From positions 1-64,000 of IMG/VR virus record IMGVR_UViG_3300023283_000076: DNA of 64,000 bases; one strand, written 5' to 3'. The notes under the pieces are model-generated. The model was not told the origin of the DNA, made no database searches, and saw nothing but the letters and a program-made list of their open reading frames with translations. A program made the translations under genes and the position numbers. Shown here one piece after another: positions 14,571 through 57,602 of the stretch. The stretch's first letter is position 1, and each line of letters opens with the position of its first letter. Origin of the DNA: a virus (taxonomy: Duplodnaviria > Caudoviricetes).

Positions 14571-14689
14571 GGTTTCAATATACCATCATTTTCGTAAATG
14601 TCAAGAAAAACTTACATTATGTCGAAAAAGAAACAGGGGGCTAGCCCCCTGTTTCATTATTATATTGACTACCGTTCAATTGATCTAGC

Positions 14690-15279
14690 GGTTAACCGTC
14701 ACATTAACATTCGATTCACCAGCTTGAGTAACCCTGTTGGTCTCATAATCAACATTAACTGGATAATACGGATATGCAGTAACCTTGGTTTCAACGTATA
14801 CTGGATTTAACGATCCCGCGCTACCCACACAGAATACCCACGTAGCTGCCGTATTCTTACTGGCGAAGATACCATTAGGTTCAGCTTGTTCAATTGTGGC
14901 TAGAGATTCAGAAGGTATCGTTTGTCAGCCGCTTGAGCCGTAGCTCGCTGTGGATTGGTCAAAGAAGTATCATACAGAATGCCATATCCAATAGACGGAC
15001 AATCACCTTCAACCATTCCATGATTACTGCGCCATACACTATGAGTAGCGTAGATTGCTTCTTTCACGTTCTGAAAGATTGTTGTTTCGAAGTTGGGAAT
15101 TAATTTCAGTCAACTGTGCTTCATATGTAGCGATGGCGGTCTTTCGTGCTTCATTATATTGAAAACTATTTTCAAATACTTCTCTCTCCACCACCTTTTC
15201 ACCGATCAATCCGGCAGATGATAGATGCCATTGCGGTAAAAATCCAACGTGTTGCGCTCCATTCTTCAATTGATTTCAT
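14690..15279 (-). pseudogene. disrupted pair of phage envelope/lipoprotein-like genes
   Basis: Coding-like blocks (VEREVFENSFQY; EPNGIF..TAATW..PVYVETKV) lie in shifting frames. Confidence 0.45.
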
Positions 15280-15309
15280 ATTCCACCACCCTCTTAAAAT
15301 ACAGTATCA

Positions 15310-15985
15310 TTGAAATTGAAATAGCAGTCTCCACGCGGGCCGCGCTTCACAGACTGCTACAAGCGCCCTTGCTATGTGCCCTGAATTTGATTTTTCGGAG
15401 TTTCTCGTCTCCTAGCCTAACTCGTCTAGAACAAGGTTTGCACGTTATCTACAAAAACCGGTCACACTACGCTGCCTTGTCGCCAAGGGCATTGGGTCGC
15501 TCTCCCAACCTGCCAGTTATCGTTTTCCAGTTAATCTCGCGCTCACTGTGTTTTATAAAGTCTCTGCGAGACTGAGACTATATGTTGACTGCTAAGACGG
15601 CAGCCTCGCCCTGTAGATACGTGATGATATTACCCTACAGCCAGCAATATCTCGTTCAATCTCAAGTACAAAGCCCGATTGAATTACGGCTTGTTGAAGA
15701 TAAGACTATAAGATTTCATCACTACTTACAGTCAAAAACTTTGGTCGGTGTAACGAATTATAAGGTGTTCTTGATGAACCAACCAAATATTAAAAAATTC
15801 CCGCCTCGGAGGTAGCTTAGGCTCTACCGCACACTCTAGGTGTGTTGCCTTTTCAGCTTTGGGCCTCTTTATGTTTCATATCCGATATTTAGATCGGGCT
15901 GGAAACATGAAGTAATCGTTAAACAGGTGCCGATTAACTATTCGGTTAGGGTGTCGAACCTTCACTCTGAAACGACCACTTGCAA
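15310..15985 (-). ncRNA. candidate large structured RNA (ROOL/GOLLD class)
   Basis: No credible ORF, GC-richer, many hairpins, promoter at 15989-16016, terminal 9-bp stem 15322-15359. Confidence 0.45.
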
Positions 15986-16128
15986 CCTATTATACATATC
16001 TCATTCCATTTGTCAAGCGTTAATTCGGTTTAATTGCATCCACCGCTTTTACATTATATACATGAAGTTCATCACCCCCTTCTCGGTTGTCCATTTTTTC
16101 CTCCAATGAACTTTCTATGTATTAAAAT

Positions 16129-16205
16129 TGGTGGGTCTGGTGAGACTCGAACTCACAACCAATGGATTAAAAGTCCACTGCGCTAACCAATTGCGCCACA
16201 GACCC
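16129..16205 (-). tRNA. tRNA-Lys(UUU)
   Basis: Full cloverleaf, CT-TTT-AA loop, encoded CCA. Confidence 0.95.
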
Positions 16206-16218
16206 AGAGATTAAAATT

Positions 16219-16349
16219 GAACAAACTAGGCTAGGGATTGACAATTACCTAGCGGGGCAACGTGATAGGCGCTATCCTATCATTCTAACCGGCATTACCT
16301 CCGGACCCTGTATCGTTGCAGAGTTTCTAATTCTGCGTCTAATTTGTTC
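16219..16349 (-). ncRNA. putative multi-branch small RNA
   Basis: 11-bp closing stem enclosing four hairpins. Confidence 0.45.
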
Positions 16350-16496
16350 TTCATGAGTTTTATTTTAAGTCTTCCAAATTTGGCCTATAGGGTTTTCCCC
16401 ACGATGATCTCATACACCGTTTTCCCTCTGACGCTCAGGAACTACTTTATTTATACTTAGTATTATATCTGAAAAAACATATATGTCAAGCGGTTT

Positions 16497-16664
16497 TTAG
16501 AGATTTACATCCATCACTTCTCGTTCAATCTTCTTCTTAGCGTTCTGCTGCTCACGACGCTTAATCATACGATCATGCTTCTTCCGATGCTTAGGGGCAG
16601 GACCACAGCAAGTACAGTTACGACCACCCGGACCATAAAGAGAAATCTTCTTGTACGTGTTCAT
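16497..16664 (-). CDS. small basic Cys-containing protein (55 aa, not in the ORF track)
   Basis: MNTYKKISLYGPGGRNCTCCGPAPKHRKK..., read by hand. Confidence 0.65.
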   Translation of the reverse strand: MNTYKKISLYGPGGRNCTCCGPAPKHRKKHDRMIKRREQQNAKKKIEREVMDVNL

Positions 16665-17549: not shown

Positions 17550-18932
17550 TTATGTTCTGCGAAACAAGAGTATATTCAAAAATTCTCTCTTGAACCTTGT
17601 ACCGAAACTTTCAGGTTCAGGTTCGGGTTCGGGGTCGGGTTCGGGTTCGGGTTCCACATAATCATTTGTATCACGTTCAATTATTGGCTCCGGTTCAGGT
17701 TCAGACTTTGCATATTTTTCCTGTAATGAATCATTATTAACGATAGTCATCCTTTCGTCATCAGTGATAGAACCGATACGGCATTGTGGCGGTGAAATAA
17801 TTGTACGCTGGACTGGTTGCGGAATACCCTTGTCATCCAACATCGATGTTAATGCTTCACCTACACCCAAACGAGTAATAATATCACTAACATTGATATT
17901 AGGATTATCCACAAACGTCTCAGCAGCCGCTCTAACGGCTTTTTGATCTCTTGGAGTGAATGCCCTTAGTGCATGTTGAACACGGTTGCCAAGCTGTCCT
18001 AAGACAGTCTCAGGTATATCGTCAGGGTTCTGCGAACAAAAGTATACGCCTACACCCTTGGAACGGATCAATCTTACTACCTGTTCAACTCTGCGAAGCA
18101 ATGCACCCGAGCAATCATCGAACAACAAGTGAGCTTCATCAAAAAAGAATACCAACCTAGGCTTGTCAACATCACCAATTTCTGGCATCTTATCGAATAA
18201 CTCTGACAATAACCAAAGCAAAAAGGTGGAATACATTCTAGGCCGAAGTATAAGACTTTCAGCAGAAAGAATATTGATAACACCCTTGCCATTTTGTTCA
18301 CGCATGAAATCAGACAACTCTAATGCAGGAGTACCAAAGAAATTATCAATGCCATCATTTTCCAGTGTGAGTAATCGACGCTGGATGACTCCGATACTAT
18401 TGGCGCTTATTAGTCCATATTCGGTACTGATAGACTCACGATTCTGCGCCATATGACTCAACAGTTTACGAAAATCTGTGAGAGTCTCAAAGGGCATACC
18501 ACGTTCTCTTGCATAATGATATACAACATCAAGTACACCCTCTTGAGCATCACTAACATCAAGCATTCTTGCCATCAATGTCGCACCGATGCTTTCTACG
18601 CTTGTTCGGATAGGATTACCAATCTTATCCCATAAATCCCAAAAGGATACCGGATTACTTGAAAAGTCAAAAGCATCAAGACCAATTTTTTCAGCACGGC
18701 CACGAATCTTTTGATTATCCTCACCTTGCATTGCCAAACCTGCCATATCACCCTTAACGTCAGCCATGAATACCGGTACTCCCATACGGGAAAAACCTTC
18801 GGCCAACATCATCAGGGTTACCGTCTTGCCAGTACCTGTAGCGCCAGCAACTAGACCATGACGATTAGCATACTTGCCAAGCAAATGTACTTGGGATTCG
18901 TCGCCTTTTCCTATTAGGATAGTATCATTCAT
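17550..18932 (-). CDS. HerA-like/DUF853 (YjgR-family) P-loop ATPase
   Basis: RHGLVAGATGTGKT, FFFDEAH, LIRSKGVGV and QLGNRVQHALRAFTP; PE-rich tail. Confidence 0.9.
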   Translation of the reverse strand: MNDTILIGKGDESQVHLLGKYANRHGLVAGATGTGKTVTLMMLAEGFSRMGVPVFMADVKGDMAGLAMQGEDNQKIRGRAEKIGLDAFDFSSNPVSFWDLWDKIGNPIRTSVESIGATLMARMLDVSDAQEGVLDVVYHYARERGMPFETLTDFRKLLSHMAQNRESISTEYGLISANSIGVIQRRLLTLENDGIDNFFGTPALELSDFMREQNGKGVINILSAESLILRPRMYSTFLLWLLSELFDKMPEIGDVDKPRLVFFFDEAHLLFDDCSGALLRRVEQVVRLIRSKGVGVYFCSQNPDDIPETVLGQLGNRVQHALRAFTPRDQKAVRAAAETFVDNPNINVSDIITRLGVGEALTSMLDDKGIPQPVQRTIISPPQCRIGSITDDERMTIVNNDSLQEKYAKSEPEPEPIIERDTNDYVEPEPEPDPEPEPEPESFGTRFKREFLNILLFRRT

Positions 18933-55797: not shown

Positions 55798-55955
55798 TTT
55801 ATATATTTGGATTTGTTTCATTGTTATTGGTTGCAGTCACCGTATGGTGTTTTGCCAAAGTATGCAAAACTGATCGATATTCATATCGTGAAGTTGATGA
55901 CAATTAGCGCTTAACATTGGTTCTAATGGTTTTCACTGTGCTGTAGCTGTATTTA

Positions 55956-56213
55956 ATGGAAGAATGGAACATGACTGATATTATAAGTGGCGTAATCGAA
56001 GAACGTGGTAATGGTTTGCCTAGTGTTGATGATTATGCCTATCACAGCTTGACTAACACGGTCTACCGAATTGTTAACACTGGTTGTATTGTTACAGGAC
56101 GTGTTGGGCAGGGTAATTTAATGCATGTAAAACTAGAAGAATATGGTGATCCGTTTGATTTGACAGATGAACAATTTGATGATATTGTATGGGCTTTACA
56201 TTTAGAAGAATAG
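55956..56213 (+). CDS. hypothetical protein; paralogue of 44143..44415
   Basis: Protein similarity. Confidence 0.75.
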   Translation: MEEWNMTDIISGVIEERGNGLPSVDDYAYHSLTNTVYRIVNTGCIVTGRVGQGNLMHVKLEEYGDPFDLTDEQFDDIVWALHLEE

Positions 56214-56281
56214 TAAGTATTGACAGAAAAAAGTTGAAAAAAGTGTTGACAAAGAATAAATAAAGCGTTAGAATGGTTTCC

Positions 56282-57215
56282 AAGTTGGAGACAGAGAGTA
56301 ACTGAACCATATGATCCATAGTCATTTTCTCCGGTTGCTCTAGCGTAAATGTCTCCAACTTTTAATTAAGAAAAAAGAAGTACAGTTTTGGGCATGACCG
56401 TGATAGCTCATTGAAAGATGGGTAACGGGAAAGGTGCTACCCACCTTCCCGCCTAGAGAAATTTAGGTTGAGTCATGCAAGCCGAGACTCTGGAAAATTC
56501 GTCCATAATAATTCAGGCGGATTTCAGACGAAACGGGATGGTAGGTTAGACCGAGGCCAACTGGTAAGGTCGTTCTAAGGTGACGCTTAGTACCTACATG
56601 TCAACATCTTGAGCGTTGGAGAGTCAAAGGGTAGTTATTTGGTGTGAGTCTTAGCGGATAAATGCTGAATAGCAATGTTAACGGTGAGCTAAACCTTATC
56701 GTGAAACATGGTCGAAAGTAATCTTAGCGGATGAAACGGCAAACGGTGTTGTCATATTTCGTACCTCAAAAGGGTATGAAGTGATGGAGACGGCACATCG
56801 TTAGGTAGTTTGCAGTCTTTGTAGCTCAATAGGTAGAGCTACCGCCTTATAAGCGGTTTGTTGTAGGTTCAAGTCCTACCAAAGACCCATAATAGATAAC
56901 TGGGTTTAAAATGCAAAAGTCCGTCTCGGTAAAAGGTGAGCAAGGTAGTTAAGTCTACACTGCGAAAGCAGAATGTAGAATCTTTGAGGGCCGCAAGCTT
57001 GATAAGATTTGGTTAGAAGCGCACGTCGAGGGCCGTACAACCTTCGGGGGAAGCTGAAAGCCGAGTAGCCTTTTATGACAGCGCAAACGCTAGCGCTTTA
57101 CAAGACAGCACTACTTGATCGATAGATATTCGCAAGTGTTTTGCGCTTGGTTTATCTGGATAAGAAGTTAACTTTAGGTTTGCAGCCTGAAGGTACGGCG
57201 ACGAAAGGCGATCAA
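56282..57215 (+). ncRNA. large structured RNA locus, GOLLD-like candidate, with embedded tRNA
   Basis: About 930 nt without a credible ORF, dense hairpins, TTGACA-N17-TAGAAT promoter at about 56246-56274. Confidence 0.6.
56815..56889 (+). tRNA. tRNA-Ile(UAU)
   Basis: Cloverleaf, CT-TAT-AA loop; 3' end reads GAC-CCA, so the discriminator base appears missing. Confidence 0.85.
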
Positions 57216-57260
57216 TTTGTAGCAATAATCTCATGCTGCTATTTACTTTAACCTCAACAT

Positions 57261-57602
57261 ATGGTACTCTTAGTCATGGATAATTTACTCGATAGACAAA
57301 AGAATGATCTTGCAAACGAAATTACAACATTCATTACAAATATTACAGGAGTAGCTGTAGAACCTAATCCGAATGAAGGATTTGAATTTGTAGAGTACAG
57401 GAATTTTATTCCTAACAAACGATCAATTAATAATTCAATTAAAGAATTCAATATTCTATTTAATGTGCTATGTGAAAACGGATGGGAAGTAGATACTGAA
57501 ATAGAAGATTTTGATCTCGCTATCCATTTAACTAAAGCTCATTGTTTTGTTACTTTATCTATTTGTCGAAATGGATTACATGTTTTTTTTGAAGAGATTT
57601 GA
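57261..57602 (+). CDS. hypothetical protein; paralogue of 43478..43882
   Basis: Protein similarity. Confidence 0.7.
   Translation: MVLLVMDNLLDRQKNDLANEITTFITNITGVAVEPNPNEGFEFVEYRNFIPNKRSINNSIKEFNILFNVLCENGWEVDTEIEDFDLAIHLTKAHCFVTLSICRNGLHVFFEEI

Follow-up and report, generated by a model that had tools for sequence, protein, structure and literature searches.

A 676-nt minus-strand stretch (positions 15985-15310) in the genome of an uncultured T4-type jumbo phage is best explained as a non-coding RNA gene that is restricted to one lineage and carried as optional cargo beside a tRNA-Lys gene: a better copy of the gene ends in a tRNA-like structure, and the copy described here is truncated at its 3' end and probably impaired. 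We put the probability of this reading at roughly one half. The DNA that we analysed, hereafter the window, is the first 64 kb (64,000 nt) of a 270,653-bp virus record, which encodes a T4-type gp23 capsid protein. The segment from 1 to 46.5 kb is an inverted copy of 51.7-102.7 kb (mean identity 84%), and this twin arm carries the second copy of the RNA gene (copy 2), located at genome positions 82715-83109, or up to 83191 when its tail is included. As for the window copy, we think it most likely that this long variant is damaged or neutral and does not represent the working form of the gene.

A perfect promoter precedes a stretch without coding capacity

A promoter had been claimed at 15989-16016, and it is indeed a perfect one of the sigma-70 type: on the minus strand, TTGACA and TATAAT are separated by a 16-nt spacer, a 12/12 match. 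Copy 2 has identical hexamers and two substitutions in the spacer. The predicted transcription start is near 15985-15980 (minus strand). Coding capacity is absent from both strands of the stretch that follows. The claim that some 670 nt lack a credible ORF was borne out on the minus strand, where there are no ORFs of at least 30 aa between 15269 and 16497; the longest sense stretch free of stops amounts to 47 aa and has no start codon. A 10-codon ORF within the hairpin at 15908-15871 was considered as a tmRNA-like tag and rejected, as it has no ribosome-binding site.

The antisense strand contains three ORFs (108, 77 and 89 aa), all in one frame, and a 12-nt indel between the two copies is a multiple of three. 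While both observations would fit a decayed protein-coding gene on one strand or the other, we consider such a gene very improbable. The antisense translation is of low complexity and we found no PHROG match for it; the second indel, of ~270 nt, is not a multiple of three; and substitutions between the copies are distributed over the three phases as 8, 4 and 3 (15 sites), with no clear codon periodicity. Furthermore, compensatory changes (see below) fit an RNA. Protein-coding conservation, named in the preliminary description as a result that would count against an RNA, was not seen: tblastn with the ORFs of eight related loci gave zero matches in the stretch.

The two copies share a core and differ in their 5' and 3' modules

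Copy 2 consists of RNA nt 1-22, two other letters and then nt 294-676 at 93% identity, without nt 23-293. The first shared part, as judged by alignment, is a conserved 5' leader (nt 1-22; 15964-15985, minus strand). In the window copy, leader nt 5-15 are predicted to pair with nt 66-76, forming the 11-bp helix P1 (15981-15971 with 15920-15910, minus strand); since it includes two G-U pairs, the predicted P1 is specific to the sense-strand RNA. The 3' strand of P1 lies in a 5' domain of ~270 nt (nt 23-293; 15693-15963, minus strand) that the window copy alone contains; neither the rest of the genome nor the viral contigs yielded a further match to it. The same domain holds a T-loop-like 11-mer (15960-15950), a nested hairpin (15908-15871) and further hairpins at 15945-15930, 15844-15811, 15786-15741 and 15733-15704. 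The T-loop-like element fits a 9-nt consensus on a stem of 2-3 bp, for which ~0.08 chance matches are expected per 676 nt by hand arithmetic.

The core (nt 294-604; 15382-15692, minus strand) is common to both copies, again at 93% identity. Its features are a predicted long-range helix (15604-15599/15476-15471), a TTGGG/CCCAA hairpin with a 7-nt loop (15508-15492), a GNRA hairpin (15487-15476) and two candidate H-type pseudoknots (15651-15611 and 15579-15534). Downstream of the core, the window copy has a small extra hairpin at 15359-15372 (minus strand), 12 nt of which are absent from copy 2, where they are left out at 15362; this 12-nt indel thus corresponds to one entire hairpin gained or lost between the copies.

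The copies also diverge in their tails. The last 142 nt of copy 2 (83050-83191) are predicted to fold into a four-arm junction that is closed by GGGCAC/GUGCCC and ends in ACCA; the fold has a z-score of -3.80, and none of 200 shuffled sequences folds as well. ARAGORN and Rfam call this tail neither a tRNA nor a tmRNA. Of the tRNA-like domain, the window copy retains a remnant at 15322-15381 (minus strand): GGGCAC at 15381-15376, which is the acceptor-like strand on the 5' side, and the first of the arms, a compound hairpin at 15359-15322. As delineated by copy alignment and folding, a weak U-rich tail (15321-15310) and a deletion scar follow (together 15282-15321, minus strand), and arm 3 survives in the scar only as its 3' strand (15293-15283). 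Through two deletions, the window copy has lost the T-like arm together with the 3' strand of the acceptor and the terminal CCA, as well as the equivalent of the second promoter that copy 2 possesses.

This comparison changes how the 3' end of the window copy is to be read. All four elements that had been named from the sequence are present: the nested hairpin, the TTGGG/CCCAA hairpin, the T-loop-like 11-mer and a terminal stem at 15359-15322. The terminal stem had been taken for the 3' end or terminator of the RNA; it is not called as such by a promoter/terminator scan, and it is one arm of the tRNA-like junction in copy 2. Being the remnant of an arm and not a terminator, it shows that the 3' boundary had been misread; the first canonical minus-strand terminator downstream of the RNA is at 14655-14630. 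In summary, the two copies have in common the promoter, the 22-nt leader, the core and the place after tRNA-Lys and before a membrane-protein/lipoprotein cassette. The window copy, in contrast, has the ~270-nt 5' domain and the 12-nt hairpin in addition, and has lost three of the four tRNA-like arms, the CCA and the downstream promoter.

Comparison with known RNA families and search for homologues

Phages and prophages encode the GOLLD and ROOL RNAs, in many cases close to tRNA genes (PMC12286853), and the typical setting of both families resembles that of the present stretch, which is non-coding, ~0.7 kb long and phage-borne, with a tRNA gene as its neighbour (PMC12286853). The tRNA-Lys that had been noted beside the stretch is present at 16129-16205 (minus strand). 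Membership in the ROOL/GOLLD class, which had been proposed as an alternative to a new large RNA, with short motifs behind the similarity to ROOL, did not hold up when checked with Infernal against Rfam 15 (4227 families). A gathering-threshold scan of the window returned tRNAs only, and a permissive cmscan of 14800-16500 gave nothing at E <= 10 apart from tRNA and noise. Neither the GOLLD model (RF02032), which describes the universally conserved 3' region, nor the ROOL covariance model, which captures a conserved architecture of several pseudoknots, matched at this threshold.

The phage does carry a GOLLD of its own, at 56744-57237, which a permissive cmscan of 55900-57600 detects with 114.6 bits and E = 5.4e-31. 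This score is below the Rfam gathering score of 150, and the default Rfam scan therefore misses the phage's GOLLD. Since the same permissive scan picks up this divergent GOLLD, the negative Rfam result for the stretch is meaningful, the positive control applying to GOLLD and not to ROOL. Moreover, the stretch has no sequence match to the phage's GOLLD, nor anywhere else in the genome apart from copy 2. A divergent RNA of the ROOL or GOLLD class, whose members assemble unaided into homo-oligomeric cages, is therefore largely refuted, and we regard it as hardly credible. The likeness is one of setting and size: the stretch is, like these RNAs, phage-encoded, non-coding, several hundred nucleotides long, located beside a tRNA gene and predicted to contain pseudoknots (PMC12286853). 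It differs from them in that it matches neither model, that no members besides the two copies were found and that its core lacks a fold-stability signal.

ARAGORN and the Rfam tRNA and tmRNA models call nothing within 15282-15985. We rejected as noise a match to Cyano-2 (E = 1.8), which is confined to a hairpin, as well as a match to Magnesium-II on the antisense strand of the copy 2 tail (E = 0.049). Separately, the hairpin at 15492-15513 resembles a Cyano-2 consensus hairpin. It is also the only part, 20-26 nt in extent, that the RNA shares with a high-GC provirus (L004, 864-883) and a Proteobacteria MAG (L033, 3135-3153); as the similarity ends at this hairpin with its 7-nt loop AGAGCGA, we read both cases as chance and rejected them.

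Five exact patterns from the core and the insert retrieved nothing related among the viral and metagenome contigs searched, and neither pattern searches nor blastn turned up a homologue of either segment in collections of viral, metagenome, genome or GenBank phage sequences. Similarly, blastn with the whole RNA against 50,697 GenBank phage records produced no match. For 12 related viral contigs recruited by their capsid protein, the region of the locus is outside their span.

Fold stability and constraint at the RNA level

The preliminary description spoke of many stems. While the named stems do exist, they are not clearly beyond what chance would produce. The whole stretch (676 nt, sense) has z = -2.47, calculated from only 20 shuffles. 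The 5' half (nt 1-293) is no better in the sense (z = -2.44) than in the antisense (z = -2.82) orientation. For the core segment nt 294-586 z is -0.29 (76 of 200 shuffled sequences fold equally well), and -0.21 for its antisense. The ornate fold of the conserved part thus gets no thermodynamic support.

Since the 5' half gives a similar fold signal on either strand, which fits perfect DNA palindromes, and the site is a shuffling hotspot (see below), we considered that the stretch may act as DNA, for instance as a hotspot of recombination, an array of protein-binding sites or an origin of replication primed by transcription. This is, in our judgement, a very unlikely explanation. P1 and other predicted helices need G-U pairs, which form on one strand only; no A+T-rich unwinding element was found downstream of the promoter, and no repeated binding-site motif was found either.

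We then compared the two copies for traces of selection on RNA pairing. The shared core contains 16 substitutions, seven of which are at predicted paired positions belonging to five base pairs, and all of these pairs are kept. The lack of broken pairs is in itself uninformative, as RNAalifold always avoids breaks. Two of the base pairs are changed on both sides, i.e. in a compensatory manner. One of them, G385A/C512U, connects positions 127 nt apart: the double change keeps the long-range helix 15604-15599/15476-15471 and would break a rival local hairpin at 15605-15587. In 300 random placements of the same substitutions, at least two compensated pairs appeared in 3.3% of the trials (P = 0.033). 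As the collection of homologues available for covariation analysis comprises the two copies only, this signal rests on the 16 substitutions. The evidence for a conserved ornate fold is at most suggestive.

The composition of the core is unusual as well. Its G+C content is 48%, as compared to 34.5% for the genome, which places it at the 97.8th percentile, level with the GOLLD-like RNA and a tRNA cluster. The whole cargo block and the putatively host-derived HerA gene upstream are likewise G+C-rich, with the core above the rest of the block; given this richness of block and HerA gene, recent recombination and foreign origin remain live alternatives. Between the copies, identity reaches 97.5% over 15491-15690, which ranks in the top 1% among windows of 200 nt, but the remnants of the neighbouring broken genes (14851-15270) are 96.5-97% identical as well. 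Since this patch of identity extends over broken genes, and since the haplotypes recombine (see below), conservation between the copies may reflect recombination and not selection.

These observations bear directly on the possibility that the stretch is a functionless transcribed spacer, i.e. the remains of a decaying cassette, driven by the promoter of a shuffling cassette and free of constraint at the RNA level, in which the copies resemble each other solely through recent recombination. The core z-score of -0.29, the identity patch that also spans pseudogenes in recombining haplotypes and the lack of homologues in the collections searched are all in line with this explanation. The same is true of the surroundings: the block is dispensable in close relatives and all of its neighbouring genes are broken, so that the RNA gene may be decaying too. 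A mere spacer is, however, difficult to reconcile with two compensatory changes, including one that can tell competing helices apart, with a G+C content above that of the rest of the block and with the perfect promoter kept in both copies; furthermore, the highly stable tRNA-like domain of copy 2 is hard to explain as junk. We regard the spacer as the main rival explanation, possible yet doubtful. The proposal of a new large RNA remains plausible: it gains from the retained promoter, the absence of ORFs, the compensatory changes, the G+C content and the tail of the sister copy, but is weakened by there being two copies only and by the core lacking a thermodynamic signal.

The RNA is part of an optional cargo block downstream of tRNA-Lys

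The stretch lies in a 1.48-kb (1,483-nt) block at 14640-16122 (minus strand), within a hyperplastic region of the phage genome, and comparison with relatives identifies this block as optional cargo. In order, it consists of a small-ORF remnant, the promoter, the RNA and a broken cassette encoding a membrane protein and a lipoprotein (~15279-14690). The left edge of the slot is the tRNA-Lys(UUU) gene, called by both Rfam and ARAGORN scans, 144 nt upstream of the RNA stretch; it is syntenic in L022, L023, L028 and L029 and is one of the 16 tRNA genes in the window. The right edge is a module resembling promoter-early stem-loop (PeSL) cassettes at 14577-14655 (minus strand), made up of the terminator hairpin at 14655-14630 and a promoter (14604-14577, 11/12 match) for a gene encoding a 267-aa protein.

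Close relatives were recruited via this downstream 267-aa gene, and distant ones via a HerA-like ATPase gene located 1.6 kb upstream, which has phage-borne relatives; two contigs found via the latter gene, L020 and L021, end before the locus, L020 (from Logan run SRR24908268) only ~30 nt away from the block. In L028 the stem-loop/promoter module directly follows tRNA-Lys. In both L028 and L029, the segment with tRNA-Lys (16352-16123, 93.9% identity) is joined within ~20 nt to sequence corresponding to window position 14639 onward (87.8% identity), and the whole block 16122-14640 is therefore missing there. In L030-L032 the slot is filled by a TonB_C gene. It encodes a 207-aa TonB_C-domain protein (L030:470-1093, also in L031 and L032) and has the small ORF that follows tRNA-Lys on one side and the 267-aa gene on the other. 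The distant relatives L022 and L023 also have tRNA-Lys in this place, with neither room nor a match for the RNA. Altogether, three close relatives lack the whole 1.5-kb block and two distant ones lack the RNA, and the stem-loop and promoter module before the 267-aa gene is common to all three kinds of relative.

This organisation matches that of the PeSL cassettes that shuffle cargo in the hyperplastic regions of T4-type genomes (Arbiol et al. 2010, PMC2839356). Near-identical PeSL repeats are the substrate on which recombination acts in such regions. In both cases, units of a strong sigma-70-like promoter and a stem-loop bound optional cargo, which some close relatives have and others lack or have exchanged (PMC2839356); the described cargo, however, consists of small ORFs, whereas here it includes ~0.4-0.7 kb of non-coding sequence (PMC2839356).

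All three protein genes of the block are broken in the window, and the cassette genes are intact in copy 2. The cassette encodes a 105-aa single-pass membrane/coiled-coil protein and a lipoprotein of ~190-204 aa, and an intact version is found at L002:2027-3103; in the window version (14690-15279) a deletion of 29 nt affects the first gene, whereas the second has suffered both truncation and a frameshift. The cassette proteins have weak matches to Rz-like spanins and to superinfection-exclusion proteins. The cassette is mobile, being present in four unrelated phage contigs (L024-L027) that have neither the RNA nor a gene-free space upstream.

As the RNA is directly upstream of the cassette on the same strand in both copies, with no canonical terminator in between in the window, it could in principle be a cis-acting leader: a long 5' untranslated regulator of the membrane-protein/lipoprotein pair that gene breakage has orphaned here. 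The evidence from copy 2 and from other phages makes this quite unlikely. Copy 2 has a separate promoter for the cassette, placed between the RNA and the gene; in the four unrelated contigs the cassette does without upstream gene-free space; and a tRNA-like CCA end is not a feature of leaders.

Two further features are found upstream of the slot. A second perfect minus-strand promoter (12/12) is at 16489-16462, ~257 nt upstream of tRNA-Lys, and the leader together with tRNA-Lys (16352-16123) is 93.9% identical to L028, the flanks being only 76-88% identical. A conserved leader of the precursor, or else a further small RNA, may lie at 16206-16489. The HerA-like (DUF853) ATPase gene (17550-18932, minus strand) encodes a protein with 63-68% identity to Wenzhouxiangella and Arenimonas proteins; this suggests that the phage acquired the gene from its host, which may belong to the Xanthomonadales or to a related group of Gammaproteobacteria.

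Long and short forms coexist in metagenomes

The runs listed as containing the stretch are three DNA metagenomes of one study, with no RNA run among them. In two further samples, 371-nt unitigs bridge both junctions of the 5' domain with zero differences, and the joint characteristic of the short form is seen as well; an independent JGI assembly contains the long-form locus at 99.97% identity over 7.8 kb. The unitig bridges and the independent assembly together establish that the long form truly exists. Long and short forms occur at 15.8 to 6.8 in one sample and at 27.9 to 37.2 in the other, and within each sample the core variant seems to be common to both forms. The form ratios and the shared core variant point to recombining haplotypes. 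Across 14900-16400, the unitig depth of arm-1-type relative to arm-2-type sequence is ~3:1 in one run and ~0.75:1 in another. The 50-kb inverted duplication of the record may represent two co-occurring, recombining strains joined in assembly, or else variants with a single arm may exist.

A possible course from transcription to 3'-end formation

The RNA gene would be transcribed by the host RNA polymerase early in infection, from its host-type promoter. The core of the transcript would fold around the long-range helix 15604-15599/15476-15471, and two pseudoknots would probably form as well. Where the gene is intact, its tRNA-like module would probably set and protect the 3' end by way of tRNA-processing enzymes, by analogy with a eukaryotic system: in MALAT1/mascRNA, RNase P acts at the junction with a tRNA-like element. 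The parallel is that copy 2 also has a long non-coding RNA followed by a tRNA-like structure, possibly one cleavable by RNase P; the window copy differs in that its tRNA-like element has been destroyed. The window transcript would no longer be processable by the tRNA-type route and probably continues through the broken genes to the terminator at 14655-14630. It is this predicted loss of tRNA-like processing, together with the probable read-through, that makes a damaged or neutral variant the most likely status of the window copy.

Our best guess for the role of the family is one in trans: a stable RNA would act on a factor of tRNA handling or translation, either as its decoy or as its scaffold. 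A fuller and more speculative scheme, which we think unlikely to be correct as a whole, regards the two copies as the remnants of a new family of large modular phage RNAs, ancestrally ~0.8 kb long, with a 5' domain, a pseudoknotted core and a CCA-ending tRNA-like 3' domain; the tRNA machinery would form its 3' end, as a counterpart of MALAT1/mascRNA in a bacterial virus, and the RNA would hijack or decoy a tRNA-handling factor.

Phage T4 offers a further point of comparison. The stable RNAs C and D of phage T4, ~120-140 nt long and of unknown function, are located in the tRNA gene cluster. Like them, the RNA described here is a phage non-coding RNA beside tRNA genes, and in copy 2 it is linked to a tRNA-shaped module; in contrast to them, it is longer and has its own promoter, independent of that of the tRNA operon.

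Implications for phage RNA biology

The finding is a modest one: the features in the stretch are real, the assignment to a known family failed and the 3' boundary had been misread. What we describe is a plausible, lineage-restricted RNA gene, represented here by a damaged long variant, and the main use of the window copy is as part of a natural deletion and insertion series from which the importance of the modules can be judged. If the family is real, the phage would possess a further large non-coding RNA besides its GOLLD RNA, which would lend weight to the idea of a heavy investment of some jumbo phages in structured RNAs placed around their tRNA genes. Furthermore, a long RNA with a tRNA-like 3' module would then constitute a testable route of 3'-end formation. 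Finally, the locus indicates that the promoter/stem-loop slots of T4-type genomes shuffle non-coding cargo too, and not only small ORFs.
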